This document shows positions 3,810 to 54,639 of a stretch of 64,000 bases of DNA, one piece after another (the first letter of the stretch is position 1; every line of letters starts with the position of its first letter). Made by a program: the position numbers and the translations under genes. The notes beneath the pieces were generated by a model, which saw nothing but the letters and a program-made list of their open reading frames with translations, did no database searches and was not told where the DNA came from. The DNA lies in NCBI GenBank assembly GCA_050084515.1, contig CM114271.1, positions 42,594,001 through 42,658,000 on the forward strand, in the 5' to 3' direction. Source of the DNA: Blasia pusilla. Its lineage: Eukaryota.

Positions 3810-6800
3810 GGTGCCCTCTCTAGCCCTCGGTCCAGACGTAACTCAGGATGTAAGCTGAAACACCTAGTGCGTGTGTGACAGTACCTCTCACAATAGTCAT
3901 ACTGATAACCTCCCGGTGTAGCACCATCTCTTCCTCCATGTTGAGGAAAACGTCCATAACCCTAACGGCTGCAATCGCGTTGGTGATGGGCTCCACCGCA
4001 TGCCCAACAAATAATACCTGGCGGCTACTGTTGTTGTTGCGCTGCAGATGATGGCACAGGTCTCTTTGGCACATGCTCTTGATAACCTCCATGTGCTCGT
4101 GGTGCCCGAGTCCTCTCTTGAAATCCACATTGCTGTACTGGTGGTGCATATACTCGTAGCTGCTCTCACCCATAACTCATAGTGGCTACGCTCTCCTCTG
4201 CCATGTTGCGCTCAATATTCTCGGCGGTCCTAAGAACATCTCTCAACGTGGGTGAGGTCTTTATAAGAAGCACCCCCTCCCGCACCGGTGTCCACAGGGT
4301 TTGGTCTAGCATCGCGTACTATGATTGGATAGCCCGGGCCTCTATCACCCCCTGAGTGACGTTAATCAACCTACGCAAGCGAGTGTAGGCCTCAAGAAAA
4401 ATCTCACCCGGGTGCCTCTCGAAGTCATGGATGCTCCACAACTTCTTCGTCCGTACCCCCTAGTAGCTCATCCTCAACTCCGCAAAGAACTCAACCATGG
4501 GGTTGAACCTAGGACGGACCTGATTGGACGGTGTAATTGCTTTAGTGTGAGTCACCCCTCCTAACACATCACTTACGGAAGAGGATGTGGCCTCTCCTGA
4601 CTCGTCCTCCTCATCGGCAAACAACTCAGTCCATGACACATAATGTGGGTCATAGTAGAGTCCCCATGCCTCAACGTCACAGGCATAACTGTGGGAGAAC
4701 TCATGGTAATCGTCCATGGATTCCCCCTCCAAATGGTGGAACGTGTCATTCCATGCTGTAAACGGGTTGAACTCTCTAGAGTTCTTAGCCCGCTGTGAGT
4801 CACACCAACTCCTAAACTCCCCAATGAAGGCTTGTAGCTCTATAGTGCCTACAACACCTGAAAACCTACGCGGTCCTCTATCCTCGTGGTCCATCTCGTA
4901 CGCCCAACTGGTAGGACCACTCAATGTGTGATGCGAATCACTAACACACTCCTCTACACTATCCCCCTCGTCTAAAGACAACACAGAAGGAGATCGAGGT
5001 GGTCTCTCACGTGGAGACCCTCGAAACCTTGCACCACTCCGGGTAAACCCTTCAGAGCTACTCTCAAGTCCACTACCTCGCCTCTGAAAATCCTGAACGG
5101 ACACCGTGATGACCCTCGTACCCCTCTCACACGATCACACTCAATCTTGTGAGTAATCCCTCAATCAGTCAAAGTAAACATGCGGCACTCAATCTACACT
5201 CTCTCACTGAGATGTGTGCTATGCGGCAACAAGCAACCTGGTGCAGCAAATCAACTGATCTTTTGTCTCATCGACAAACCATCCTCAACTCTAGACATCT
5301 CACACAGGTCTATGTCCCCTAAACCCATACATCATAAATGCTCTCAGCATCAACACGAAACCCAATATCCCAAATAACCTCCCAATATCCGAAAATCCCT
5401 AACACATGCGGGGCAAAAGACTAGAATGGGTAACCTGACAATAAATATCGATGTCTCTCCTCAGCAATTGCAAATCTCAACCCCAACTCGGTCGTAAAGA
5501 CAATTCTTCCAAATAGCATGTCGTACTCTCTTGGTACTGATGATGCTCAAATTTCCTCGATGTGCGGTGCAGGTCCACCAGTCCGGTGCGGTACTGGCGG
5601 CACGGAACGACTACAAACGGCACGGCACTCGGGAATAGAGTGTGGCACTCGGAGCCATACCCTCATTGGTCAACAAGACACAATCTGCTCCCAGTGATGG
5701 TGTGGCTCTGTGATCGAGACGGTGCTTTGCGGCCACAAGCGGCACGACGCAGAAATTGGCGGTGTGTTGCAGCTATGGGCGTCACGGCACAGTACTCGAT
5801 CGTCGTCGAGCGGCTACCAATCACAACATAGCAAAGTGGAAAATAAATTGTGACCCATGAATCCAAAAAGGTCACATTGTTAAAGTCACAAGTAAACGAG
5901 TGGCGATGATTCATACAGACTCACCAAATACGGCAGCGGCCGCCCTATCTAGCGATTGGTGACTCGTCATTGTCTTGAACAACGGCGGCGGCAGCGGCAA
6001 ATGGTGGTGGTGACAACTTAGGTCTGCAGCAACTCACGATAGCAGAAGCGGCAACTAACAGCGGCAACGGCAACAAACGGCGATGACAACAACAAGTGGC
6101 GGCGGCAGAGGCGATGGCAAAGGGCGGCGCATGCGGCGCCGCCAACGGCAGCGACTGGTTTAGGGTTTGGAGATTTTTACCCTAAAACTTGGCAATTTAA
6201 AAAATTGGCCACAACTGTCTGTTCGCAGCTCCAATTTGCACATCGTGTGTTGCACAACGTGCACAGCTTCACGATGTACGATAGCGTCAAAAAATATTTT
6301 GAATCAAACGTTCCAATAAAAACTGACAGGGACTGTTGTAAAGCCCAACGTCTCTTTCTCCTACACAAAATTCGGCAGCGCTTCCGCGCTGATTTCTCCA
6401 AAAAAAATGTAGAACCTCTGAAAACACAAATCAGCAAGCTACATGGTGCTCCCAAGAGGGCAACCCGCTCCCATACTCAATTCCTATCATAAATTGGGCA
6501 ACGCTTCCGTGTGCCACTCTCCCGTACAAAAATCTGCAAAGAAAAATAGTAAACTCGCATGCCTCTTGCTCCAGTGAGCACTCCCATGAGCCATGAAGCA
6601 GGGAACACAATCCCCCAACCTGCAACACACATCGAGCAACCAGCGAGCTCCCCCATGAAGCTCTCTCACTCACTCATTCTCTCTTTGTAAAATAAGATCC
6701 AATCTCTCTCAACACCATAGCTCTCAAATGTGTGCACTCTCACATGTCTCTCTCAATGTCAAACCAAACCCACTCTCCTAATGAGAGGCTTGAGTTACAC

Positions 6801-7929: not shown

Positions 7930-8743
7930 TGTTGCGAAAGCATACGTTCAGTAGGATACGCTCATACTACTGATCTCCATCCAAACACTCACGTTAGTCT
8001 ACTCTAGGTCAATCAGCCTTCCAACTTCCCGGGTTCTTGACTCGGTCCATTCATCAAGCTTAACCCTCCTAACTCCTCACTCCCCAACATGGGCAAGTCT
8101 TCCTAGACTTGGGACAGACTTTCTACATACTCTAGGCAACTAAAATCGCGCTCACATACCTAATGGTCCCAACTGTCCAATGGACCTTGCATGAGTCCCT
8201 AACCGAGACCCAAAAAATGAGTCGCAGGTTATAATCCAAGTGACCTTCGAAATCTACTCCCTTGCACTTGGCTTGGGGTTAAAACCCTAACGCGAACCTT
8301 CCGATCCATTATGTGCCCTTGGTTCAGTAGTTTTTACGAAATGTATTAACCTTTGCTAATGCAAATTTTTTGGATCTTTGATGCCCTGGAAATGACTTTA
8401 CATAATCTTTCCAACGATGCCTTATTCATCCCAAACGCATGTCAAGTCTGCAAGTTATGGTCCAAAATACAATACAATCCAAAACGCTAGTAACGTTCCA
8501 AATCCGATTCTCAACCGCTTTGGTAACCACTCTTCCTAGACTCAACTCCTCTCAAGTCTTGGTTCACAATTGGTCTAGATTTCCAGAGTTGCAACCATAA
8601 ACGCATGAAATGCTCAAATTGCACGCGTCTCTAATCTTGTGTCTCCTTCAAGAGACCTCTCCAATGGGCAACCATCATAGTGTGAGCCCACTAGAGTTCC
8701 GATGTTCCGTCTTGGCGCATGTTTGGCTATGAGGGTCGCAACA
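7930..8743. mobile_element. Solo-LTR-like repeat
   Basis: Bounded by a perfect 8-bp inverted repeat, TGTTGCGA (7930) and TCGCAACA (8743). Its 3' part (about 8240-8743) is homologous to 30175-31152. No matching TSD is seen. Confidence 0.55.
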
Positions 8744-18072: not shown

Positions 18073-19553
18073 TGTCGCGCCAGGCTCGCACATAGCCACT
18101 CCCGCCAGGTCTCCGCAAAAAGTGACCAGTGAAAAGTACGTAAACATCCAATCGCAGACACTCGTATGACAACAGCCACGAGCGCGAGAGACATCCCGGA
18201 GTCCGGGGTCGAGAATCGCTTTAACGAGGCCACTAGCTTAATCACTGCGCGCATCGTCGTCACTTACAGCGTAATTACCGACTCACACTCCCCTCGCATT
18301 CACGATAAACGCGATCGACAAGATTCGCACGCCAAATTGTTGCTGATCAATCGCGCCTTCTCCTACTCCACTCTCCATCCCGCTCCCCGCCGAACTCATC
18401 GCCCCGCCTTCCGCATCATCTCCTCACCATCTTCTCGCGAATTAGCGACAATAATGCATCCACTCACTCGAATTGCGCTCGCTGCCAACAACAAGAAACT
18501 CTTTCTCCCTCTCTCTCTCTCTCCCCCTCACAACTGGGCACCCCTTTCCTCCCCTAGGCCCCGCTGCGCTGTCTGGCTGGCGCGTCTCGAGTCGGCAGCA
18601 AGCGGAAAAGCGGACACATGACGCCTACTTCCGTCTACCTCAGTTAATCCGCGGAGGGAGTAGTTACCCAGTTGGCGCGTCCGGAGGCGCGGTGTGCAAG
18701 CAGACGTGGAGACGCGATATTCCGCGCTTCGCCAGGTAACTCCGTAAGTGAGTCCAGCGTGGAGTTACCGAGCCATACCGACGGGGGATCTACTAGCCGG
18801 TACTGTACCGAGCATTATAATTGCCTGGACGAGTCGACCCTCTACAGACAGTGTTACCTGCGTACGGCTTCGGAGCCGTCGATCGGAGTGACGTGGGAGG
18901 ACTACGAGTCGTCATCCGATCAGGTGTACGTGTCAACCTTCCGCCGTAGCGAATGCAAGGGGCCGTATCATTCATTTCTTTGGCCATCTTAACGCCTTAA
19001 CACCTTTTTGGTTTTTATTTTAAGTCATCGGTGTCATCCACATAATATACATATATTTTTATATAATTGAAAGAGGATGGAGTTTGAAGAACACGTGTCA
19101 TGGTTCTCTTATCATGACACATGTATTTTTTGGCTTCGTCCGGTGATGACACATGTCATCTTTAACAAAAGAATTAGTGGATTATCACATACACTTAAAA
19201 TCATAAATTTAATTAATATAATTCCCATAGGTATTTTCATTTTCAACCGGGCATTATGCTAGTATTTATTATATATCAATATGTCTTAGTATGAACCCCA
19301 CTGAAATGATAAAATATTTTTGAAAAGAATTTATTTCCATATGTCAAACGAAGGAATAGCCTCTATATTACTAGCAAGAACCATTGGACAAAACATTCAT
19401 AATCCCATTTTTCCTTCACCATGAAAATAGGTACTTGACTTCCCTAGAATATTCTCTTTTCCACACCATTAGAACCAATTAGTTATTTAACATTGAAATA
19501 GTACACATATTATTGTTGCAAATGGAGCTATCTCAATTTTTCATTGTGATGTC

Positions 19554-19921
19554 TGTCATGACCATACGGATTCTGTCGTAGAGTATAGTGTGCTAGTAGA
19601 GGCCATACCTTATGTAGGGCCGCAGTGTCTAGGTAGAGATGCGATTTCATACATAGGGTTGGGGGTTATTCAGTTGAGGGTGACTTTTCCAATAGGGCCC
19701 GCTCTTAGGTTGGAGGATATAAGGTGGAGTGCACTCAAAGAACAGTCAGTTCTTTGAGTTGAGCATGTTGCGTTGGGAGTTAGCCTTGGTAGTGAGTAGA
19801 GCTCTTGGTTATGGTGTTTCCCGCAAGCTTCGACCTAGATTCTCCCATCGTGGAGTGGGTTTGGCTCGATTGTATGTGATTCTATATGTGTTTTATGACA
19901 GTAGGTCTTTCACAGATTTCA
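19554..19921 (+). repeat. Terminal repeat segment A1 (promoter/R/U5-like part of the LTR)
   Basis: Near-identical to 28584-28947 (about four substitutions and one small indel cluster by eye). Begins TG, ends TTTCA, and contains TATAA at 19718. Confidence 0.95.
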
Positions 19922-19933
19922 CTCAAAGAACTG
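19718..19933 (+). promoter_or_regulatory. LTR TATA box, predicted transcript 5' end (about 19747) and self-complementary primer-binding site (19921-19933)
   Basis: TATAA at 19718-19722. CAGTTCTTTGAGT at 19747-19759 is the exact reverse complement of ACTCAAAGAACTG at 19921-19933, which starts at the last base of A1. No TGG-initiated tRNA PBS abuts the repeat end. Confidence 0.7.
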
Positions 19934-21434
19934 GAGTAGATCGATCGTAGCTTTGATTGTAGGTCAGTAGGATCTAGTTAGGGCTGATTGTGTACTCATC
20001 CGTGGATGTTCGTGGCTTGTGGCCTATGTTGGAGGTAGGAATATGGTGCGTGGATGGCTGGGAAAGAAGCGCCTTTTTGAGAGCTTTCCGACGTGCTTTA
20101 GATCGCCGGATTTCGTCAAGGGAGTTGGAAGTTATCAAGGATTGAAGATTCTGGTTCGTGTTCGACGGTTTTCTGATGAGGAGAGCTTGGAGTGCGGAAG
20201 CTTTGTTGAAGTTCATCCAGATCGGGTGAGAGGTTCATGTTGCTACTTGTATTGTGATCTCATGTGAAACTATCTGCTTAAGTGTGTGGAGCGTTGCGGA
20301 TTTCTGCGTGCATGAAATTGGGCGGAAGCACTGTCGGATTTGCGATTCTGGAGGTGTATGGACAGCAAGTTTGTCTGATTTTTAGCTCGGAGTACAGAGC
20401 TTGGTTGTAGCTGATTTTTTGTGGAGAGATAGCTATGGTGGTAAATTGAATTTTGGTTGAAATAGATTCAATTTTGGTTGAGGATTTGTGGAGTAATTGC
20501 TGATCGAAATTTTGCAAACTCGCTCAAGGTCTGGGCTATGGTGGACAGCGGATCGGAGGGGCTGGTTGGTTGTTGACTCTTTCATTGTTGGAGATGCCTA
20601 TACCGTTGGGGGCGCCCTGGTTGGGCCTCTCTCCATAGCGAAGCATGGCGAAGCGTGGCGATAGGGGCGATAGGGGCATGTCTCGAGGCTTCGAGGCAAC
20701 TCGAGGTAGCTCGGGGCGAGTGGGCGTGAGAGGCGGAGTAAGGAGCAAGGAGCAAGCAAGCAAGCTTGCTTGCTTGGGCGTAGGGCAATTTTTGCAGGAT
20801 TTTTGATTTGAGTGTTGCATAACTGGTCACCCATCTTTGGGCTATTCTGCCTGGAAGACGCTTAACTGCAGAGTTCTTAACTATGCCAGTGTACACACTT
20901 GTGTAGCTCATTTGGTACTGTTCGGAGAGGTGTTAGGCGCTTTATGCATCTCAGGTTTTTGGTTGATGGACCTCTAGTGCATAGTACGGTGTAGCCTCTC
21001 CATGCAGGTGATATTTTCAGGTGTTGCGAGTTCGACTAGCACATCATTGACCCGCGGCGGAGTAGCTATTGCGTTAAAATTGTGTGGTGGGTTTTGTGGA
21101 TTCAGGGGGTGCCACATTTGTGGATTGTGTAACCTTGATTGCCATTTGCGATTGGAGGGTTGTCGTTGGACTTCCTATGTTTGGATCCCCTCCATCGTTG
21201 CTTCTTGCTTGCGCGCCCATTGTTAGGGTTGACGCTGATTTCCAGAGCAGTGTTACTCCTGTGTGCTACCGGTAGTGAGGCTTGAGTGATGACCAGTAGA
21301 CCGTGGGAGGCTTCTAGTGGTGATGATAGGTTAGGTTGCCTACATCCATAGTTAATAGAGCTAGAATAGTATAGCGACATCGACGTCACTTGGTTACTTA
21401 GTGGTGATAATTTGGTGGTGGTGCGGTATCGGCG

Positions 21435-22960
21435 TTGGTCATCACGGAGTTGTCGCGTGGTCAGGTTGGGGACCGTGGTGCGGACAGTGGTGGTTTCACA
21501 TGGAGTGGATTTAGGTATCGGCTACCTTTTCCACTTCCAACGGTTGATGTAGAGGAGGACGAGGGTGTTCCAAACACCGAGTCTTCTACGTTGTTATCGA
21601 GTGTTGCAGCTCCATTGATTTGGGACATGGACGGGATATATGGGGCCATGAAGGGCCCACGATGATACTCGGGTGCAGTGGGCACCATTGAGTTGGAGGA
21701 CTTCATGCAAGAGTTTGATACGTGGTGTGATATGCAGATGTTGCGGAACGCCACTTTGTTTACACCCTTCTTGGCTTGGAAGGGGTTGTTTCAGCACTTG
21801 GAGGGACCACCCATGGATGATTACCATGAGTTTAGGAAGGACCGTGTTGCTCAGATTGAGGCGTGGAGACAATATTGGTCTTCATGCTATGTGTCTATCA
21901 CCCATGGTGGTATTGGTAGTAATGCTCCTACTATGCCAACCAGCCCGACGTTGAGTGGTACGAGTACGAGCCGGAGTGGGGGTACCAGTGGAGGTACCCA
22001 TGGAGGTACTAGTGGAGGTACTAGTGCCCCACCATCGTTTAGCCCGGTTGCAGAGTTCTTCAAGAGGTTGAAGAAGAACTATCAGGGAGTGAAGACAGAG
22101 AAGTTGAGGAGTCTTCAAGAATTTGAGCGAAAGACTGGTGAGAGTCTTCGTGAGGCATACACTCGTATGCGACGCTTGATTTCAGACCATTGCCTTCATT
22201 TGTTGCCCCGCAGCAAGGACAGTCATGTTGGACATGTGGAGGTGATCATGTTAGGAAGTTTTGTCCCCAAGAGGATGGGAGACGGACTTTGGAGGATGGG
22301 CCTCAGTCGGCCCCTACTCAGTATGATCATTGCGGGAGACCAGGTCATCCTCGAGAACGTTGCTTTGATCTTCATCCAGAGTTGAGATCAGGCCGCGGCC
22401 GTGGTGGAGTAGCTCCGAGAGGCCGAGGTGGTAGAGGTGGTAGGGGTGGTAGAGGTGGACCAGTGGTTGGAGAGCCTACGGTGGCTACCCCTACCACTAC
22501 GACAGAGTCAGCTATAGCTGCCAGATTGAGCTTGATTGGAGCAGAAGTTGGCTACTATGGCTGGTATCCAACATAGATCAAGTTCGGGAGCAAGGGCTTC
22601 CACCTCTTATGGAGGGGATGATCTCTCTTATATGGCGAGTGCAGCACAGGTTGAGGCATCGGCTGTAGTTACGAGAGGAGCCACTCGAGCGTCAGAGCCA
22701 CGTGGTGCTAGTGTAGAGTTGGACCCACAGAGGGGTGAGGCTGGGAGGCAAGCTAGGCTTCCCCAGTCATTCTTGTTGTCTGAGGTGCTTAGGACTCCAT
22801 CCATGGTTCCTATGCAGCCTATTGAGCCGACAGTGGGGATTGAGGCATCTACATCGCGTGTAGTAGACACGGATGCAAAGATCAAGACAAAGATTGCGGA
22901 TGGCAACTTCAGTGTTGGGATCCCCATTGTTTTCGGCCACGGAGCTGATGGCTTTAGGAG
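21435..22960 (+). pseudogene. Gag region with two CCHC zinc knuckles and an RGG-rich tract
   Basis: ORFs 21435-21665, 21678-22385, 22190-22576 and 22536-22964. Motifs: GESLREAYTR, CWTCGGDHVRKFC, (Y)DHCGRPGHPRERC and GRGGRGGRGGRGG. Confidence 0.85.
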
Positions 22961-23179
22961 TTGACTTAGCTCCTGTATTTCAGCTAGCAGCCACGTTGTG
23001 TGAAGGTGGGGGTGTTACTGCTACACGTGGTGAGGTGGATGAGGGTGTTGCGGTGGAGCAACCCTCTATGTCAGGTGTAGTATTGAGAACCAGTGCTACT
23101 TGGCAAGCAGCAGCGGCGAAGATGGATGCATTACCAGCCCGGCCAGCCATTGATCGTGAGAGGCTTACACCTGGTGTAT

Positions 23180-23634
23180 GTATGTTGGACAACCGAAGTG
23201 GGATATTCCGATTGGTGAGTCCTACAGGACAGGTGTATAGACCAGATAGAGTCTTGTTAGACTTTGGTGCCCAACCTTTGATGTTGGGAAAGGCGGCATG
23301 TATTGGTTTGGGTATTCGGAGGTCAGAGCTTGAGCCTTGCCCATTCCAAATTCAAACATCACTTGGAGGAGCCAATGATAGGTCTCAATTCATGACACAT
23401 GAGAAGTTGTCTGTACAGTTGAGACCAGATCATGCAACTGATAGCTCCCAGTTGGGAGTACCTCCAGTGGTCACATCAGCCGAGTCATATGATGTACTAG
23501 TTGGAGGAGCAATATTGTACCCGATGGGTTTTCAAATGGATTACTGGACTGAGACAGCGTCTTATAGACCTGGTTGGCAGTCCGGGGATGGACGTATCAG
23601 CCAAGTTCCTGTGAGATTTATTTATGGGGCTTGA
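23180..23634 (+). pseudogene. Retroviral-type aspartic protease domain
   Basis: VLLDFGAQ at about 23251-23274 (D-S/T-G motif with S changed to F) and downstream YDVLVGG in ORF 22873-23634. Confidence 0.8.
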
Positions 23635-23985
23635 CCAGGAGGGTCTTCCCCAACGATGTTAGCATCTGTGGCTGGTTTTAGTGGAGTAGTCACTTGGCCA
23701 GGAGACTTTTTGGAGGGTAATGTTTCTGCTATGGATTCTCCTGTGCATGAGGAGGTAGAGGAGGTCCCTAGTTTTGCAGCAGTGGCATGCTCATCGTTGG
23801 ATGTTCCACTTTGGAGTTCAGGCGGTGCACTACGGCAGGAGGCTGATCGCCTAGTGCAGGAGGCTTGGTGTGAGGCTATTATATCTCACGAGGAAGAGGA
23901 GGCCCCATGGCAGACTCCTACTTCTGGTCCAGTTGGATTATCCTCTTTGGATACTACATCCATTGTATGGCAGTATCCGTTGGAG

Positions 23986-24915
23986 GGCATTTGTGTGTTA
24001 GATCTCTTTGTGGGATTAGCACTAGTTTGGCTGTAGTGTTGCAGGCCGGTATTCCTGTGCGGAGATACGTGTATATGGAGCGAGATGAGACGGCCCAGAG
24101 AGTGTCATCCCGACATATTAGTCAGTTGATGCGGAGATATCCTGAGTTGTTGCCGCCATGAGCTATTCGTGGGTACCAACGTGCTTTGCCGTCACACATT
24201 GCATTGTTGGGCGCGCAGGACCTTGAGAGGGTTGGTCATGTGGATTTGGTGATTGCTGGATGGCCATGTCAGGGTCATACACGTGCTGGTCGTGGTGAGG
24301 GATTACACGACCCTAGGTCTCGATTGTTTTGGGAGATGTTACGGGTGTTACGACATCTTAAGGTTCATCAGGCACGTGCTCCAGCTTACATTCTGGAGAA
24401 TGTTCCATTTTTGGGTGACACTCGGACCCGGATGATGGCGAGTGTTCATGAGGCGCGGTCTTGGATTGGACCAGCGGTGTTGTTAGATGTAGCGCAAGTT
24501 GGCTCGCGTGCACATCGTCCACGCTTGTGGTGGACAAACTTGTTGCCTAGGGAGGTTCTACGTCGAGCATATGATGCAGTGCAGCAGGATCCTTGCCTTA
24601 CAGTGGATAGTATATTGGATAATGGGTGACTTTCTCAGGTGGTGAGGGTTATTGATCAATCACCCATGGTAGTGGTAAACCGTGTGGGCCAGCCTAGGAT
24701 GGCACTACCCACATTTGTGAGTTTTCCCTCGTCACAAGCATACAGGGAAGGTGATCTCGGGCTTGTATGGGATTCTCATGTGTGACAGTTGGTGGAGCCT
24801 AACGTTGATGAGAGAGAGCGTGCAATGGGATTTACTACTGGTGTGACAGCGGTTGCTTCCATTTCTGAGGCTTCACGACGTCATGTGTTGGATCAGGCCA
24901 TGGACCTGAATTGTT
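23986..24915 (+). pseudogene. DNA cytosine-5 methyltransferase domain (DNMT3-like) inside the retrotransposon polyprotein
   Basis: Motifs appear in order: I VLDLF-(frameshift)-GI at about 23995-24018; II YVYMERD; IV DLVIAGWPCQG (PCQ at 24264-24272); VI YILENV (ENV at 24396-24404); VIII AHRPRLWWTNL (about 24510); IX ERERAMGF; X RRHVL(D)QAMD (about 24876-24905). Three in-frame stops. Confidence 0.92.
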
Positions 24916-25259
24916 TGACTTGGATTTTGAGTCTTGGTATGGCCGAGCAACGCCGACTTTGGACTATGTCTGTGGGTCTTCCACCCCTTGTAATGAGCTC
25001 GATGGCTACCGGGATGGTAGAGGCATCGGCTGGGGGCGAGGAGAGTAGTATTTTACATCCTTGGAGTAAATGGGATGTAATGGCTAGGCATGTGAAGTTG
25101 GTTGCTCATGCTGGTGGAGGAGTTATTTGCTCAGATGATGGTGTAGCTAAGGGTGTACCATCTTGTGAGGGGGTTGCGTAGCAGCCAATGGCATCATCCT
25201 CTCCCTCTAGTGTGCCACTGGAGGAGACGTGGGAGCCATTACTTAGGCCCAAGCTTACG

Positions 25260-26100
25260 GGAGGTGAGAAACGACGCTTGACACAGTTCCTACGTGCTGA
25301 TAGGAGTTGTTTTGCCTTTAGCATGAAGGAGTTGGATGCTCTGGTTGGACCCGGTATACGGATTGATTTGGCTAGTGATACGCCAATTGTCCGTCGTCCC
25401 TACCGATATAGTGATATGGAGAGGGACCTGATTCAGAGTAGGACGTTGGACCTTTTGGAGGCTGGATTAGTGGAGTTGTCGCATGGAGAGTATGCATCAG
25501 CCACTGTCATGCCTACTAAGAAGGATGTGCATGGCAACTACACAGATAGGCGGATGTGTGGAGATTACTGTCTTATCAATCGGCACACCAAGGCTGATAG
25601 GTATGCCATGCCTACACCTGAGGAGATCTTTGATGTAGTGGGACATGCAAAGATTTTCAGTACTTTGGATCTTCGGGCAGGATACCATCACTTGCCGATT
25701 CGAGAGAGTGACAAGGCCAAGACAGCATTTTGGGGTGTCAACTCTCATGGCAAGGATTGTTTGTACCAGTGGAAATTCTTACCCTTTGGGTTGAAGAATG
25801 CACCTACCGAGTTTCAGAGAGTGATGGATATGATCCTAGTAGGGTTGGATTTTTGTTCGGTGTTACATTGATGATATCTTGGTGTTCAGTAACACGGTGG
25901 AGGAGCATCAGATACATTTACAGATGGTGTTTGAGCGGTTGAAAGCTCATGGTCTATGTTTGCATCCAAGAAAGTGTAAGTTCTTCCATGAGGATGTTGA
26001 GTACTTGGGTCATGTGATCTATCTAGGTGGTTTGGGAGTTCAGCAAGCAAAGATGGAGGCTATTACACTTATTCCGCGTCCGGTAGATGTGAGTAGAGTT
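25260..26100 (+). pseudogene. Reverse transcriptase (Ty3/Gypsy)
   Basis: RRMCGDY, FSTLDLRAGYHH, KTAF, LPFGLKNAP, and YIDD at 25864-25875 just after a frameshift, then KCKFF and YLGHV. Confidence 0.95.
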
Positions 26101-26289
26101 CGAGCATTCTTGGGATTGGCGAACTACTATCGGAGGTATGTGAAGGGATTTAGTGCTATGGCAAAGCCTTTGAACCAATTGTTGAAATCAGATCAAGAGT
26201 GGCACTGGGGAGATGATCAGGAGAGAGCTTTTGTGGAGCTTAAGGCCCAGTTGGTGGCGGCGCCTATCTTGAGGAGACCTATCAAAGGG

Positions 26290-26600
26290 CGCCCATTTCA
26301 ATTACACACCGATTGGAGTAGGTTGGGACTTGGAGCGGTGTTGACACAACATGATGATGAGCACATGGAGTTTGTGGTGGCCTATGCAAGTCGTTCAAGA
26401 ATGCATGAGTCGCTATAGTTCATATGAGGGAGAGTGCTTGGCAATAGTGTGGGCTGTGGCACACTTTAGGTGTTACTTGTTTGGCACACAGTTTACCCTT
26501 GTTACTGATCACCAGCCGCTCAAGTGGTTGATGGAGTCTGACAAGCTTACAGGGAAGCTTGCATAGTGGGCTCTTATCTTACAGGAGTATGACTTCCAGG
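26290..26600 (+). pseudogene. RNase H (Ty3/Gypsy)
   Basis: FQLHTDWS..GLGAVL, VAYASR, YSSYEGECLAIVWAV..F..YL.G..FTLVTDHQPL; frameshift near 26400. Confidence 0.92.
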
Positions 26601-27039
26601 TGGTACATAGACTTGGAGTTGCCAACCTTGATGGTGATGGGTTGATTGGGAACCCCTGTACTAGCCAAGAGGATACAACTGGGGCTAGATGGCATGGCGA
26701 GGTTTATGAGGAGATGGTGCCAGGTTGGCATGCATCCGCCTTTTTATGTTGGTTAGGGATGGACTCTAGTATGGAGGACCACATGATATCTTACTCTAAT
26801 CAGAGGGTAGATGGCCAGCCTTCAGATCCTAAGGTTGGAGATGGTGGTACGGATCAGCGTGACATTCATGATGATGCGTTGGTGTTGGAGTTCCTACGGA
26901 CTAGTAGAATGCCGGGCATAGTGAGTGCCAAGGAGCCAGACCGTGTTCTTCAACGTGCTAAGAGGTATCGATTGGAGGGAACACATATTCTCCGTGTGCG
27001 GGAGGATGGTAGAGTACGAGTAGTGCCGCATTTGGCTCA

Positions 27040-28110
27040 GAGAGAGCACATTGTGCGACATGCCCATGAGGAGTTGGGACATTTTGGGGTAAAGCGTACA
27101 TATAGCTTACTCCTTGGTCAGTATTGGTGGCGTGGCATGCATACTCAGGTGCAGCAGTTGGTGTCATGTTGTATGGTTTGTGACCGGGTGAGGGCATCAT
27201 TCAATGCCCCTACACCACAGTTACACCCCTTGCCTATTATGGGGTTGGGTTACCGTTGGAGTGTGGACTTTGCGGGACCATTACCGTTGACTATACGACA
27301 TCATCGTTACGTGTTGGTGATGGTGGAGCACTTCTCCAAGTGGATTGAGTTGGTGGCATTACCTGACAAGGCAAGTGAGGGAAAGGCGTATGCGTTTCTT
27401 GATAGAGTGCTTAGTCATTTTGGTGCACCAGGTGAAGTTCTGACCGATCAGGGTACAGAGTTTCAGGGTGAGTTTTAGGTCTTGTGTGACAAGGCGTTGA
27501 TTGATCATTGGACCACGTCTTGAGATCATCCAGAGGCGGATGGTTTAGCTCAGCGTGTGGTTCAGACGGTGAAGAGGGCATTGCGCAAGTATGGCCTACA
27601 GAAGGGGCATCTTGGAGACTGGGATATTCAGTTGCCATGGTTAGCCATGGGATATAGGTTCAGTCGCCAAGCATCCTTGGCTTCCTTCTCACCTTATTTT
27701 CTATTATACGGCCGAGATCTAGACTTGCCAGTAGCAATTCGTCGGGAGTCTAGTGAGGTGGTGAACCTTGATGACCCATAGATGTGGATGAGAGTGTGTT
27801 CTCAGCGGGCAGAGCTCTTTCGGAGAGTTATGCCAACAGCCTTTGAGAATCTTGCCATTGCTCAACACAGGGATACGTTGCGGTATGCAACCATTCGGGG
27901 TGGAGGTTATCGACCATCGATTCGTAGGTTCCATATGGGGGACTATGTCTATTTGCAGCGGATTGCACCGACAACGTTGGATGTGACGCCAGGCCGCACT
28001 ATTTTACGAGTGCGCGAGGTGTTAGCTTCTGGAGTTCTCATGTTGGAGGGTCGTGATGGAGATGTTTGGAAGGACCATGTGCGTAATTGTGCGTCATGTC
28101 ATCTTCCAAA
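27040..28110 (+). pseudogene. DDE integrase
   Basis: HHCC zinc motif (HEELGH...CMVC), WSVDFAGPL, VEHFSKW, VLTDQGTEF, ADGLA(Q)R with the catalytic E changed to Q, and SPYFLLYGR. Confidence 0.92.
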
Positions 28111-28162
28111 TGTGAATGGTACTGTTGACCCAAGCTTAGCCATGATACGTGCTAGCTTGAGG

Positions 28163-28300
28163 TGCATGTTGTGTGGGTCTGCTGGTAACGCACCCCGTAT
28201 GTTGGTGTGTGATCGGTGTTCTAGGGGTTGGCACATTATGTGTTTGACTCCACGTATTGATGTTGTTCCTACTGGAAGGTGGGTTTGTCCTCGATGTACT
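28163..28300 (+). pseudogene. PHD finger (C4HC3) at the C-terminus of integrase
   Basis: CMLC-x11-CDRC-x4-HIMC-x12-WVCPRC at the end of ORF 27782-28303, followed by the terminal stop. Confidence 0.9.
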
Positions 28301-28454
28301 TAGGAGAGGTAGATGACTTGATCTTTGCATGATATGGATTACATAGATGTTCGACTAACGATGGGGCAACCTAGCACCCGGCCTTCTGATTTGTGCACCC
28401 AAGAAGGTGTATAGCATGTAGTAGATGTATAGGGCTACTTGGGAGTTAGAGGGA

Positions 28455-28477
28455 CCTAACCGGTTAGGGGGGCGAGT
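28455..28477 (+). promoter_or_regulatory. Polypurine tract preceded by a 14-bp palindrome
   Basis: CCTAACCGGTTAGG (28455-28468) overlaps AGGGGGGCGAG (28466-28476), immediately before TGTGG at 28478. Confidence 0.7.
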
Positions 28478-29053
28478 TGTGGTACACTTGTGTTTGTGGA
28501 TGCTCTCGTTTATGTTATGTATGTATGTGAGTATGGTATGTCAGCGATGTATGTTGTATGACGATGTGGATTCGCACGATAGCTGTCATGACCATATGGA
28601 TTCTGTCGTAGAGTATAGTGTGCTAGTAGAGGCCATACCTTATGTAGGGCCGCAGTGTCTAGGTAGAGATGCGATTTCATACATAGGGTTGGGGGTTACT
28701 CAGTTGAGGGTGACTTTTCCAATAGGGCCCGCTCTTAGGTTGGAGGATATAAGGTGGAGTGCACTCAAAGAACAGTCAGTTCTTTGAGTTGAGCATGTTG
28801 CGTTGGGAGTTAGCCTTGGTAGTGAGTAGAGCTCTTGGCTATGGTGTTTCCAAAGCCGACCTAGATTCTCCCATCGTGGAGTGGGTTTGGCTCGATTGTA
28901 TGTGATTCTATATGTGTTTTATGACAGTAGGTCTTTCACGGATTTCAGTTGTGGTACACTTGTGTTTGTGGATGCTCTCGTCTATGTTATGTATGTATGT
29001 GAGTATGGTATGTCAGCGATGTATGTTGTATGACGATGTGGATTCGCACGACA
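28478..29053 (+). repeat. 3' terminal repeat block B1 (28478-28581)-GC-A2 (28584-28947)-GT-B2 (28950-29053)
   Basis: B1 and B2 are 104 bp and differ at two positions. A2 matches A1 at the 5' end of the element. Confidence 0.95.
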
Positions 29054-30174
29054 TGTCATCTTCACAAAGCACATTTATTGTTCTTTTGATTCTCTTACTT
29101 GTTTCCCACAAAGATACTTCCTTCCATTAGCCTTGGAAGGAAAGAAAAGACTTGAGTTGGATTATTAAGACCTAACTAGTCGTAAGTCCCACAAGGTCAA
29201 ATACGCAAAGTTTTCCGCCCTTGTTTGGTATCCTATGCCTCCCTTATTTGCATCACAACTTCTTTGGTTAGCCTATCCATCAACCCTCCACCAATCTCCC
29301 CATATAACTCACCTTGTTGAAGTGCAGTCGCTAATTCATAGTAATTATTGAAAGAGTGTCCCACAAGATATTCAAGCTCACAACTATACATACCCCCAAA
29401 AAATAACATCATCAACTCCTAATTTCAAATGATGGTTGAGTACATCCTTGTTAGCCTCGTACAAACTCAATGACATGGTGACTTGTGATGAGTCTCATAG
29501 TTAATGTTGCCTTGTCTTGACTCCCCCTTGAATCTCTATTTCCTATATTTCATGTCTAAATGTCTCAAAATGCCATGTCTATATGTGTCCCTTCTTATGA
29601 CTAATCTCAAAGCTCCCCACTCATCTTGGCTACTTGTGGTGTCCTATCCGCCTCACCCCTTAACTTAACTTGAATCAAGACTTACTCCCCCGTATTCATT
29701 AATCGGCTAGTTAGTCATACTCCCTGCCCACAACCACATTATTTACCTCATATATCTTAAGAGAGTTTTAAGATGCACGTGAATGGTTCTTTTGATTATT
29801 TCTATGATATATGTATTGGCATCCCCATTCGTCTTGATTTCTCTTACTCTCAAAACCATATGCATATCATTGCCTTTGGATGACTTGAGGGAGCATTAGG
29901 CTCCTAACAATTCCCAAGTCTTGCAAGTAGACTTGTTTAGGTTTTCATTTGGCAATAACAATGAGGTTTCTTATCCCTTTGAATCATGATCATTATTCAA
30001 CTTTGATTTACCAAAAATCATAAATGTGTCAAACTTAATTAACTATTTGCAACAAGATTACCACCTTTTTCTCCTCTTCATTTTTTTGTTCATTATTGAG
30101 TATCCTAATTATATCTTTTTGGAAAAAAAAACTTTGGGATATCACTATTTATGATCTCAAATTAACCGAACTAT

Positions 30175-31152
30175 AGGGACCTCCGAAATCTACTATATTG
30201 GACTTCGTTCGGGTTTCGAATCCCAACGTTAAAACTCGTGATCCATTTCATGCCCTTCAGTCTCCCAATGGCACCCCAAAGTGGGGTTCGAATCCCAAGC
30301 ACTCTTGAGACCTTCTCCCTTACTAGTATTTATGGGGTTCTTTGCCCTCTCCCTAACTTTGGAGAAGAGACGTTCGTGCCCCTCTTTTTGGCCCTGAACC
30401 CAACTTCCCATGCAATAATTTTTGGGAATTTTCTGAGTCTGTGCTTGTGCGTTTGCTAAGATCTTTGGTGCGTTGGAACCGACTTTGCAGAAGCTTTGCA
30501 ATGCTATATTGGACTTTGTTCGGGTTTCGAATCCCAACGTCAAAACTCCCGATCCATTACATGCCCTTCGGTCTCCCAACGGCACCCCAAAGTGGGGTTT
30601 GAGTCCCAAGCACCCTTGGAGACCTTCCCCCTTACTAGTATTTATGGGGTTCTTTGCCCTCTCCCTAACTTTGGAGAAGAGAAGTCCGTGCCCCTCTTTT
30701 TGGCCCTCAACCCAACTCCCCATGCAATCATTTTTAGGAATTTTCTCAGTTTGTGCTTGTGAGTTTGCTAAGATCTTTGGGTGCGTTGGAACCAGCTTTG
30801 CATCAGCTTTGCGATGCTATCATAACTGTCCCAAATTCATCTTGGGACTAAAAATTATGGTCCAAATTATAATCACAATCCCAAGTGCTAATGACGTTCC
30901 AAATCCGGTTCTCACCTCTTTGGCAACCACTCTTCCTAAATTTGACTCCTCTCAAATCTTGGTTCACGTTTGGTTCAAGTTTCCTAGTCTTGACCATAGA
31001 CATATGAAACGCTCAACCTTGTTTGTGTCTCATCTTTTATGTCTCTTGCATCTCTTCCGAGAGACCACTCCAATGCGCAAGCCATCCTAGCATGAGCCTG
31101 CTAGAGTTCCGATGTTCCACATGGCGCTTGTTTGGTTATGAGGTTCACGACA
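30175..31152. repeat. LTR-like remnant with an internal ~311-bp tandem duplication (30193-30503 and 30504-30820)
   Basis: CTATATTGGACTT(C/T)GTTCGGGTTTCGAATCCCAACG recurs at 30193 and 30504. 30858-31152 is homologous to 8458-8743 and ends TCACGACA. Confidence 0.75.
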
Positions 31153-50900: not shown

Positions 50901-53585
50901 AAGCCAAATTGATGCGGAAGAACAAGTTGTCTCATTTATAGGACACCAGCTACGCTTGCAATTTGGAATCGACACTTTCCTGTAAAACAAGCGAAGTCTT
51001 GGAAGAATGCAATCAGAAACAGACCAATAAGGATGAGAAACACAACTGGGGAAAGACCTCTGGATAAACAGAAAATTCTAAAAAATGGGCCAATCAACCT
51101 TCCCTTATCCTTAAATCAGAAGGAATGATCACAATTCAGACAGACTTGTGTTTCACCCTCTTTGGGATTCAAATATCTATTTATAATAGAAGAAATGAAC
51201 TCCAAAAGGTTTAAAGACAAAAACTCAGTAGACAGATTCCAGTTGTGTAGGTTATGCAGATGATTCAAGGGTAAGATCAAGTAAACATTCAGATAACATA
51301 AACGGGAAAAAGGCAAGGCAAGGCACAGTTGAGCACTGGCAGTACACTTAAGGAATATTTTGGGGACCAACACTCCCCATTGAAACTCAGTCAACTTGGG
51401 AGTGCGATCCATTTCCCCTAAATGTCACAAGATTCCAGGACATCAACTGACTGCAAAAATAGCAACCGGGTAGACTGTATACAAAAGGAAACATGTACCG
51501 GCAAATCCTGTCATCACAGTCATCAAGATGTATCACAAAGAAGCCACCTGAGTCTCCCTTAGCTATGACAACAAGCAAGGCTGCTTTGCACCTTCTTTAT
51601 AGTTCTTACAGAAAAACACTATAATACTAAAGTTCTATGCATACAATTTGAAATTGAAACAGTTAGATCAGTGTGTCTGACTCACCTGTGCAGCCAAACG
51701 GGTCCGGACAACATCTAAAGGGTAAGTCAAAGATGCAGCTGTGATACCAGCTCCTCCGCCTGCTATCAGCTTGGTTCCTATGCCCATACCAACACCAATT
51801 GTCTCCGGCTTGCCCTCAATTCCTAGAATGCTTCTGAGACGCTGCAAAAATGGCCCACAGATTACACACATACCCTTGAAATTTGCATATGAACTTCTAA
51901 ACAGGTAAACTTAGGGTTATTTTACCAGACAACTTCTAGATGGATTCAGCCTCCTTTGATATGCTTCACCCAGAGCAAAGCTCAAACAAAACCATGCAAA
52001 TATCAATATGAAAGGACTTCCAAATAAAATTATTCCAAAACAAGTGCTGCATAAGGGCAGTGTGCAGCACTTCATCCCAGAGTCATAATCAAAACAAGGT
52101 AGATATTAAGGTGGATTAGTTGTTGTTTTAGAATTTGAACCCACAACCAATCCAGCACAAATACTCACGAAATCCCAACCCCCAATTCAATAGATGTGTG
52201 ACTACTAGTCCCAATGCTTCACATATGTGCCTAGAATTGCTACATGTATGCTGGGTCTATCACTTTGTCCAAGAGAGTAGTCACTTCACAAACATACCAT
52301 CTTGTACTGTTCATAGGCATAAAAGTTGACCGAGGAATATGGCAGTCGATGCACGATAGTTACTCCATTTCCTTTCCAAAAAGCTCGGAGGCCCTCTTCA
52401 CGAAGTATCCTTGAAGCTTCTTGTAACATTCGAGGGCGACTTAACTTAGTTTCTCCCGAGTTCATGCCTTGAACCTGACAAACATGTCCCCACGAGGATC
52501 AACCACAGAAAGAAACCTCTTCAGTTCAGGGGAGACAGGTAAGCAGGAGCAATTCATGTGTCCTCCACTGGCAGATAACCAGTAGCAGTGAACACAAGTG
52601 TTAATTCATGAGCAGGAGTGGGGACAATTGCTGGTGAATCACTTCGCAGCACACTGAGCTTCACTGACATTTACAATGCACATTACGCCCAACAAAGAAG
52701 ATGAAGCTGTTCTGTCTTCCAGGGAAATCTCATAGTTCATGGACAGTCTAGGCGGAGGCGCCGAGCAACCCTAACCTGATCGCTCTACATCCCCTGTCAT
52801 TTTGTTGAGCTCATTTCAAAATTTTCCCTGCCGTGACCCTCCTATTTTCTGAAAGCTCAGACAAATGTCATGGTTGGGTACTTTTCGGTGGCTCCGACCA
52901 TCAACTTGTAGGGTTGAAAGGACATTTCCTAAGCCAAGAATATTCTACGCTATCGCCAAGCCCGATTTCAGGAGAGCAGTCTCTGGTTATTTTCTTTTAA
53001 CTTCAGGGTATGATAAATCAGAAGATTCACATAATCGCAAGGGTAGACAATTACCCACGATGATCCACGAAAGAGTAGAACAAGGCGGTCACAAGGGTGA
53101 TGAAGGGTCTATGGTTATGGTCTGAAAATCACAAAAACGTGGATGTTCTGAGAACAAAAAGCACAATTGGTATGCGAGGAAGACGTACAATATATCACGG
53201 GCTTTATGATGAAAAAAGCATCCGTTAAACCTTCAACATTACCTAAAAACTGGCAGCGACGGGCCACTTGTAGGTGTACCTGGAAAAGGATCGTAAGACG
53301 GGCGAGGGGAGCAGTGCAGGTCTTGCTCACTGCACCCGCCACCCCTCCCGCCAAAAACTGACTCGCCGTGCCAATCTGTGAAGGGCCAACCGTCTCCCTC
53401 TCCTGCTGCGCACCGACTACTTCCGCCGTAGTTCTCTCGGTGTCATCTGGTGCTCTCGTAGAAGCATCCAACGCCACAGTAGCTGCCTGTGCGGCTCTAG
53501 GCCCGCACACACCTCCGACCCCTGCATGAAGTCTGGCATCACCCGCTGCTACCGCTGCTGCTGCTGCCGCTGCGTCAGTTTGCAT
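47979..53585 (-). CDS. Mitochondrial substrate carrier (MCF/SLC25) protein, At3g55640/At3g53940-like subgroup, about 372 aa
   Basis: GT-AG exons 53280-53585, 52298-52474, 51686-51841, 49261-49362, 48993-49063, 48526-48593 and 47979-48217 total 1119 nt in frame. Three carrier repeats: SKTCTAPLARLTILFQ..EEGLRAFWKGN, TYPLDVVRTRL..EEGARGLYKG, TFPIDLVRRRMQ..KEGWFGLYRG. Confidence 0.93.
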
Positions 53586-54639
53586 TCCTCCGACCGGATT
53601 AATTAGGGATTCCTGCCCCCTCCTCCACCCCTGAACCCTAATCAAAATCGCCCCTACTCTTGCACCACATCACTGCTTCTATCCAAACACTTCCATCCAA
53701 TCACATTTTCGCCCTCCCGATCCGTCCTCAAACCTCCCGCACCCCGCTCCTACTCCCACTCGCCTCCTCGTCAATTCTCCTCTCCAGCGAAAACTCGGCC
53801 CCGCACACCGCGTCCGTCACCGCTCCGCAAAACTCCTCTTCCGATCCCTTTCTCCGCTTCCTCGCCTCTGCTCCTTTCGTCCCTCGATAGGCAGACAGAT
53901 CCACAGCCTGCCTATACGAGCTCGCAATTCTCCGCTGCGTACCCTCGCCCTCCTCCTCTGTGCTTCCCAGAAAGAGAGGCAGATGGCACATGTAACCGCA
54001 GAGCCTCTCTCTCTCTCTCTCTCTCCCTCGCCGCTGTCTGGTAGGATCGGGCACACGGCGGATCGTTTTTTTGCACTGTGCACGACCGAATGCGCCAGTT
54101 GAGCGAGACCGTCGCAGGAGACCCGACAATGGCGCGTGCACGGCTCCGTCATTGGCCGACCGCACTGACCGTCGCATAGGGGGGATCGCCTTGGGAGATC
54201 CAGTGCTGACCGCCGACAGATATACACAAGGATCGGGGGAGATCCGGGATTACCAGAAATCGTAGCCGGTAAAAGTCAAGACTTTCCGCTTCACTTGAAA
54301 CCAATCGGAGAAGAAACTGGCAGGCTATAGGGGGTTTCCTTTGTATAAAATATCCGAAAACCGGTTCGATAACTGGTTTTACCGTTCCCGGCTGTCGGTA
54401 ACCGGCACAGTACCGGTTCCGGTGGGAAAACTCCCCGGGCCCTGATTTAAAAACCCACTACGTAGTACAGAGCGAATATAGCATTCCGGCGCAGCGTCGG
54501 ATACTGAGTGTCTCACGGTGTGCCGCGGGACCGAATCCGTGGTTTGTATGAAATGAAGATTTTATTCCACGTATCACTCCTATCGTTTACGATCTAATAA
54601 ACGATAAACGCTCCATCGAAAATAAATTTTTGAAATGTT

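Follow-up and report, generated by a model that had tools for sequence, protein, structure and literature searches.

Can a DNA methyltransferase be a regular part of a retrotransposon, and if so, what would it methylate? The question is raised by a stretch of 64,000 nucleotides from Blasia pusilla (assembly GCA_050084515.1, contig CM114271.1, positions 42,594,001 to 42,658,000 of the forward strand), called the window below and numbered from its first letter. A Ty3/gypsy element of 9.5 kb occupies positions 19554-29053 of its plus strand and, according to stop-to-stop open reading frames (ORFs) and Pfam matches, is arranged in the order gag, protease, DNMT, reverse transcriptase (RT), RNase H, integrase and PHD finger. 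The explanation that accounts best for the whole, which we hold with good confidence from sequence comparison, would be that the DNMT part is a methyltransferase domain within a defunct copy of a Ty3/gypsy element, and that the family of this element has long carried a DNMT3-type C5 cytosine methyltransferase as a regular, selected part of its polyprotein.

The methyltransferase domain and its likeness to DNMT3

The C5 cytosine methyltransferase domain extends over 23983-24930 (plus strand), as set by alignment. Its central piece, 24162-24626, matches the Pfam family DNA_methylase (PF00145) with an E-value of 9e-11 and 42.2 bits against a cut-off of 22, and the whole domain, read through with X at its stops (P0001), gives an E-value of 5.2e-10. 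The Pfam match spans the core of motifs IV to VI alone; as the intact relative P0195 gives the same partial match (42.7 bits), this short coverage is due to the Pfam model and not to decay. Throughout, queries were either the X-read-through translation or natural intact relatives, with no frame repaired and no consensus made. The translation displays motif I (LDLF.G), motif IV (GWPCQG), motif VI (ILENV), motif VIII (SRAHRPRLWWTNL), motif IX (ALPTF) and motif X (ERERAMGF...LDQAMD), in an order, I-IV-VI-VIII-IX-X, that is colinear with human DNMT3A. In the alignment AHRPRLWWTNL pairs with AHRARYFWGNL of DNMT3A, and ERERAMGF with EMERVFGF, while a sequence search of the PDB aligns the read-through translation colinearly with the human enzyme over motifs IV to VIII and over motifs IX-X.

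Ranked matches place the domain nearest to DNMT3. With the single sequence, the top PDB match is DNMT3A (1.8e-8), followed by 3B and 3C, and then by HaeIII (3e-4) and HhaI. A profile of 20 sequences, built from the window domain and 19 short relatives, gives 4.2e-25 for DNMT3A, 1.6e-23 for DNMT3C and 5.7e-23 for DNMT3B, while the tobacco and Arabidopsis DRM chains score from 2e-17 to 4e-14, HhaI 7.5e-9 and DNMT2 1.5e-5; no DNMT1 or CMT chain in the PDB appears at 0.01 or below with this profile. On the DNMT3A chain 2qrv_A the profile aligns in three colinear stretches that cover motifs I to X. The DRM match is confined to profile positions 57-190, that is, to the N-terminal motifs, and lies at the C-terminal end of the DRM chain, as expected because DRM is permuted. 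Plant DRM2 therefore has a related catalytic core, as these profile scores indicate, and differs from the window domain in its circular permutation, the window motifs being unpermuted. The fold was tested on P0195 (368 aa), an intact relative 78% identical to the window copy, and not on the window copy itself. Its AlphaFold model, obtained from a 39-row alignment, has a predicted local distance difference test score (pLDDT) of 89.7 and a predicted template-modeling score (pTM) of 0.89; Foldseek searches with it returned DNMT3A, 3B or 3C at all ranks listed to 50 (best E 3.6e-18), with TM scores of 0.79-0.85 normalized to the methyltransferase-domain chains. Judged by these ranked profile matches and by the matches of the predicted fold, the domain is DNMT3-like, and its putative membership of that clade is read from them.

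A different origin, from a bacterial or viral C5 methyltransferase as in SymbioLINE-DNMT, with the DNMT3 likeness arising by convergence or from the short target-recognition region, appears improbable. It could draw on the restriction of the Pfam match to the motif IV-VI core, and on a feature search of the ESM Atlas, which returned generic PF00145 clusters only and scored phage-rich ones equal to a streptophyte cluster. However, in the profile search DNMT3A reaches 4e-25, colinear from motif I to motif X in three stretches, and the best-scoring bacterial enzyme only 7.5e-9, and the fold matches at the ranks listed to 50 are all DNMT3A, 3B or 3C.

The first-pass annotation of this DNA, made from the sequence alone, agrees with these results. 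It had placed the feature at 23986-24915, within the aligned domain, and had described an unpermuted C5 methyltransferase between the aspartic protease and the RT of a Ty3/gypsy element, an arrangement now shown by the Pfam and PDB matches and by the domain order of the relatives. The search against PF00145 that it proposed gave the match above the cut-off reported here. It had also judged the motifs closer to DNMT3 than to MET1 or CMT and not permuted as in DRM, which is borne out by DNMT3A as the best match, by the lack of DNMT1 and CMT chains at the threshold given and by the colinearity with DNMT3A. Its reading of the copy as a pseudogene likewise stands, since motif I holds a frame change and three TGA codons lie in frame within the domain.

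A family in bryophytes with a selected methyltransferase

An exhaustive HMMER search of 1.84 billion cluster representatives yielded 2902 matches at E<=0.001, of which 707 reach E<=1e-10 and 213 reach E<=1e-30, and a good number of the 150 top-scoring proteins are polyproteins (1000-3400 aa) in which the match lies centrally. Named relatives, found by word-indexed searches, come from Marchantia polymorpha (at least 16 entries), M. paleacea, Riccia sorocarpa, Calypogeia fissa, Sphagnum fallax and S. troendelagicum. Examples from M. polymorpha are Mp_8g17980, Mp_4g09160 (whose 90% cluster has 18 members) and MARPO_0091s0058, which joins PF00145 to RVT_1 and RNase H. The best protein identities to the window are 78% (P0195) and 70-75% (Marchantia and Calypogeia). 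In P0057 a single ORF of 2188 aa holds, in Pfam order, zf-CCHC, Asp_protease_2, DNA_methylase, RVT_1, RNase H and integrase (rve). The extension to land plants, which the first-pass annotation had made conditional on the host, holds whatever the host of the window, because relatives with the same architecture are named from Marchantia, Riccia, Calypogeia and Sphagnum.

Two architectures were distinguished by locating the window's own domains in the fetched proteins. Type A, that of the window, has the protease upstream or the RT downstream of the DNMT (protease-DNMT-RT), and type B has RNase H upstream or integrase downstream of it (RT-RNase H-DNMT-integrase), as in P0123, P0026 and L007. Among 326 proteins with a DNMT match, 67 are of type A, 100 of type B and one is conflicting, the other 158 being too short to type. 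One type B protein, with the source label jgi/Chrzof1, which we take to be the chlorophyte Chromochloris zofingiensis, carries a G-patch domain between DNMT and integrase. In a FastTree tree of 137 full DNMT domains (136 of the 141 typed proteins plus the window, five same-cluster duplicates being left out) the architecture changes once, at a separating branch with support 96; 500 shuffles of the labels gave a mean of 38.7 changes, and none gave as few as one. A tree of RT and RNase H (66 rows) again has a single change, with support 99. Both are quick trees without outgroup, which speak for co-divergence and not for the ancestral position of the DNMT. Since the architecture changes once on both, the DNMT is, as far as these trees can tell, co-diverged with the Gypsy backbone of the element across green algae and bryophytes, in a long association.

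Capture of a host DNMT3 fragment once, by a single copy, with no part for the domain in the life cycle of the element, is an explanation of almost negligible probability. In its favor, the window holds only one DNMT copy, and the other related pieces there (1361-1930 and 4460-5134, minus strand) are gag only. Against it, dozens of independent polyproteins have this domain in the identical position, and they come from several named bryophytes as well as from many assemblies; the domain also co-diverges with the RT, no insertion boundary or intron is seen, and in intact relatives the DNMT is in frame with the protease. The one-off captured fragment that the first-pass annotation had named as the finding to fear thus fails, the domain being present in hundreds of related elements. 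It is also very improbable that host domestication explains the proteins annotated in Marchantia, Sphagnum and Calypogeia, with the window copy as a decayed paralogue of such a gene. NCBI annotates them as ordinary hypothetical proteins, some of them on chromosome-scale contigs, which would suit such genes; these annotated proteins, however, carry gag, protease and often RT and RNase H, terminal repeats and a complete pol are present in the window copy, and one DNA run gave 216160 contig pieces at an identity of at least 90%, which points to a repeated family.

Selection has apparently acted on the domain. The catalytic Cys, the EN of ENV (its Glu included) and the AHR.R..W.N, ERE and G..MD blocks are each conserved in 90% or more of the 154 full domains compared. 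The measurement of nonsynonymous to synonymous rates (dN/dS) that the first-pass annotation had proposed was made by the Nei-Gojobori method on five of 12 related metagenome loci (L001, L002, L003, L004 and L006), whose DNMT regions could be aligned gap-free; the 10 pairs all give values of 0.24-0.53, for copies that are only 36-38% identical to the window in protein, so that the values speak for the family and not for the window subfamily. Each of these copies carries 2-6 stops. As read from sequence conservation and dN/dS, the DNMT is a regular and selected part of the polyprotein of the family.

A PHD finger follows the integrase in most full-length relatives, and P0315 and P0318 have both a chromodomain and a PHD finger. 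By analogy with the chromodomains of chromoviruses, this finger probably steers insertion by a histone mark.

Sequence identity between mosses and liverworts is a separate observation. The DNMT of the Sphagnum protein P0216 is 73-75% identical over about 270 aa to those of Marchantia P0004 and Calypogeia P0196, as high as the identity among liverworts (63-73%). This closeness suggests either slow evolution or transfer of elements between bryophyte classes.

Layout, translation and transcription of the element

All parts of the element lie on the plus strand. The gag region (about 21627-22600), with two CCHC knuckles, frame changes and a stop at 21663, is recognized from the ORFs 21666-22385 and 22154-22576, a weak Retrotrans_gag match and homology to the N-terminal parts of P0003 and P0004. 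The aspartic protease region, retropepsin-like, at 22867-23634 has no Pfam match in the window copy, and is assigned by homology to the protease region of relatives, Asp_protease_2 of P0057 lying at the same place. The DNMT domain is followed by RT and RNase H (25182 to about 26700; RVT_1, RT_RNaseH_2 and RT_RNaseH), with frame changes near 25850 and 26350, the RVT_1 match beginning in the ORF 25182-25871. The integrase (26567-27781) has an H2C2 zinc domain and a DDE core (Integrase_H2C2 E 6.8e-16, rve E 1.1e-10), interrupted by in-frame stops, and the PHD finger at its C-terminus lies at 28163-28300 (PF00628 E 3.6e-10).

About 80 codons past motif X the window has a TAG (25179-25181), followed by CAG CCA, and the RT continues in the same frame. 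Half of the 24 close relatives with alignable tails end at this very column, including P0003, P0004 and P0008 of M. polymorpha and P0196 and P0259 of Calypogeia; two of the 24 are gene models that splice past the stop into the RT, and the remaining 10 end elsewhere, most of them fragments. As the stop is shared by 12 of 24 relatives, gag, protease and DNMT together form ORF1 in the window subfamily. Its ORF2, as predicted from the same sequences, is made of RT, RNase H and integrase with the PHD finger, in the same frame as ORF1. In the more distant metagenome elements L001, L003 and L006 a continuous ORF leads from DNMT to RT with no stop between, and the two-ORF layout is therefore a trait of the subfamily and not a requirement. 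The CAG CCA after the stop matches the CAR YYA context known for leaky UAG codons of plant viruses, and an ATG (25188) stands two codons (6 nt) 3' of the stop. Among the RNA joints listed, none has the GT..AG ends of a spliced RNA for ORF2, and the joints look like deletion derivatives. ORF2 is probably translated either when ribosomes now and then read through the stop or when they re-initiate at the ATG 6 nt downstream; both routes would give DNMT in amounts like those of Gag.

The terminal repeats are split, in a layout A-coding-B-A-B. Repeat A1 (19554-19921, TGTCATG...TTTCA) is 97.6% identical to A2 (28584-28947), and B1 (28476-28583) is 96.5% identical to B2 (28948-29053), which ends in CACGACA and forms the 3' end of the element. 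Repeat A is thus found at the 5' end and near the 3' end, where it is flanked on both sides by B, and a purine- and G-rich tract resembling a polypurine tract (28441-28475) adjoins B1 directly on its 5' side, and not A2. The full layout recurs in L001 (repeats at 159-439 and 8092-8728 of that locus), and B-A-B follows the integrase in four of the six type A loci that reach that far (L001, L004, L005 and L009), all four with a G-run adjoining B1; of the other two, L003 has B-A only and L010 B only. Shared details are the start of A with TGTCATG (also in L001), the end of B with CACGACA and the direct run of A2 into B2; given this start and this end, the ends of the element form an inverted repeat of 6 of 7 positions. 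No primer-binding site was recognized in the window or in L001. The four bases TGTC at 19550-19553 and 29054-29057 could be a target-site duplication; the evidence is weak, since they are only 4 nt long, the element itself starts with TGTC and none was found in L001.

Because the putative plus-strand primer site adjoins B, the repeat of the cDNA would be B+A. The integrated form A-internal-B-A-B could then arise if a two-repeat circle were cut at its B|A junction, which resembles a palindrome (CACGACA|TGTCATG), and the DDE integrase would have a circular or concatemeric intermediate as its substrate. Among the papers reached by a search aimed at such split repeats, none describes them on a Gypsy element with DDE integrase, and the combination is a mechanistic puzzle of its own. 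A wider proposal would unite these features in an ancient Gypsy clade of the green lineage, present in chlorophytes, charophytes, liverworts and mosses, with a DNMT3 writer and a PHD reader, in some members also a chromodomain or a G-patch, and with a replication unlike that of ordinary long terminal repeat (LTR) elements, in which a DDE integrase acts on a circular or concatemeric intermediate; we regard this as speculative and, on balance, doubtful.

The family is transcribed into sense RNA. Three raw RNA-seq runs, labelled with the same species as the best-matching DNA run (share 0.53), placed 4225-4613 reads each on the element at an identity of at least 90%, covering it from A1 to A2. The depth is strand-specific: in the bin 26080-26433, first mates on the minus strand reach 117-142 and those on the plus strand 1-12, which means sense RNA, given usual stranded libraries. 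Depth starts in the bin 19354-19707, which contains the start of A1, is high through B1 and A2, reaching 63-96 in the bin 28558-28911, and is down to 1-3 one bin further on, where B2 lies. Given this start in A1 and end within A2, repeat A acts as promoter and terminator, in the manner of an LTR. Reads that skip 1008 nt at 26822-27831, with 9 other letters between the two sides, were seen in all three runs (16, 31 and 44-47 reads), and the skipped stretch likely marks a transcribed deletion derivative of the family.

The ratio of observed to expected CpG is 0.61 in the element versus 0.64 in the window, which is near equal and thus no special signal of CpG depletion. An Rfam scan of the window gave no match. 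Outside the element, the two gag-like ORFs at 1361-1930 and 4460-5134 (minus strand) are 68-82% identical by BLAST to 21669-21833; they represent remains of related elements whose DNMT part is absent from the window. A tandem duplication with a unit of about 311 nt (30193-30780) lies just 3' of the element, and an exon of a host gene for a mitochondrial carrier protein is found at 53115-53669 (minus strand; PF00153 E 1.5e-5).

Possible targets of the enzyme and known systems

Several observations weigh against the reading of a family that uses its own DNMT3-type enzyme, besides the distance of the dN/dS copies from the window and the continuous ORF of the three metagenome elements. The window copy is a dead pseudogene that cannot make the enzyme, because the frame changes from 1 to 0 inside motif I (about 24008-24012), TGA codons interrupt the domain at 24159, 24627 and 24783, and many lesions lie elsewhere: several frame changes in gag, one each between protease and DNMT, in RT and in RNase H, and stops in gag and integrase. 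The transcripts come from other copies and not from this one, since only 11-19 reads per run are at least 99% identical to it, the rest being 90-99% identical, and all three RNA runs stem from one study. No stable RNA structure follows the ORF1 stop (z = -0.61; 52 of 200 shuffles fold as well). Finally, neither PWWP nor ADD reader domains are recognized by Pfam in the window's ORF1, in P0004 or in P0057; PWWP and/or ADD domains N-terminal to the methyltransferase are typical of animal DNMT3, though not universal.

For the family, the proposed model, close to that of the first-pass annotation, in which the enzyme would also be packaged, is that the protease would release the DNMT domain from the polyprotein, and that the enzyme would methylate cytosines de novo in the DNA of the element itself. 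The element's own cDNA or fresh insertion is suggested as target by the parallel with DNMT3 and the published SymbioDIRS enzyme, a possibility that we put forward tentatively and at somewhat less than even chances. It is rather unlikely that the enzyme is active on some other target, either host chromatin in trans, where it would reshape silencing, or RNA, or that it serves as a non-catalytic partner like DNMT3L. The placement of the DNMT in ORF1 predicts a high abundance, above what packaging would need, and the consulted part of de Mendoza et al. (2018, PMC5890265) discusses an RNA target for a LINE-borne enzyme and calls the roles unclear. The catalytic residues are nevertheless conserved across the 154 domains, which speaks against a dead partner like DNMT3L, and fold and motifs are those of the DNA-acting DNMT3, not of DNMT2 (1.5e-5).

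In the literature searched, Gypsy-DNMT3 elements are described for the charophyte Klebsormidium nitens only, and the land-plant members are new here. De Mendoza et al. (2018, PMC5890265) nowhere use the word 'Marchantia' in their main text, and later papers, in the parts consulted, cite 'streptophytes (Gypsy-DNMT3)' with no land plants named. No description of a Gypsy-DNMT in liverworts or mosses was found in the texts reached, among them PMC11982613, PMC12344493, 10.1101/2021.02.12.428880, PMC9516144, PMC5784723 and 10.64898/2026.05.21.726589, with supplements and many subscription journals lying outside the search. Beyond what the first-pass annotation had noticed, the conserved stop of ORF1 after the DNMT, the PHD finger on the integrase and the split terminal repeats are further new anatomy. 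Retrotransposons that write the very mark that silences them have been in print from dinoflagellates and one charophyte, and are here found to be abundant, transcribed and under selection in land plants. As the family is present in the model M. polymorpha, with its genetics, methylome maps and transformation, the question of what a transposon gains from its own DNMT becomes testable. Counts of DNMT3 genes in bryophytes, and readings of de novo methylation in them, may include transposon-borne enzymes.

Among known systems, cellular DNMT3A, 3B and 3C provide the best sequence and fold matches and share with the window domain the motif order I-IV-VI-VIII-IX-X and a short target-recognition region; the window domain differs by standing without PWWP or ADD, by an identity of about 20-23% and by its place inside a retrotransposon ORF. 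The chromoviruses (Neumann et al. 2019, PMC6317226, as far as consulted) share a chromatin-reader module at the C-terminus of the integrase, which is a chromodomain in them and a PHD finger on the window integrase. The presence of a PHD finger in the Chlamyvir clade was not borne out by the literature consulted, the accessible part of that paper included.

Closest are the retrotransposons with DNMT domains of dinoflagellates and Klebsormidium, which the first-pass annotation had rightly traced to de Mendoza et al. (2018, PMC5890265). The dinoflagellate SymbioDIRS-Dnmt3, as described in the consulted part of that paper, shares a DNMT3-type domain in Pol, two domain orders and the layout A-coding-B-A-B, and differs by its tyrosine recombinase, in place of which the window element has a DDE integrase together with RT and RNase H of Gypsy type. 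A classification of the window element as DIRS-like, which the repeat layout might invite, is ruled out by the presence of Integrase_H2C2 and rve instead of a tyrosine recombinase. KnitGypsy-Dnmt3 of K. nitens was reported in the same text as an intronless, unpermuted DNMT3-related domain in a Gypsy polyprotein, with conserved catalytic residues and under purifying selection, and the legend of its Fig. 4c gives it the same repeats as DIRS (A-coding-B-A-B) with the domain content of Gypsy. That text states no place for the DNMT within the K. nitens polyprotein, and the word 'PHD' does not occur in it. No protein named from K. nitens is among the named matches of the protein searches with the domain, and the likeness is drawn from this published description only: both elements have a DNMT3-related domain in a Gypsy polyprotein and the A-coding-B-A-B layout, the latter also seen in L001. 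They differ in their hosts, a charophyte there and bryophytes, those of the named relatives, here.

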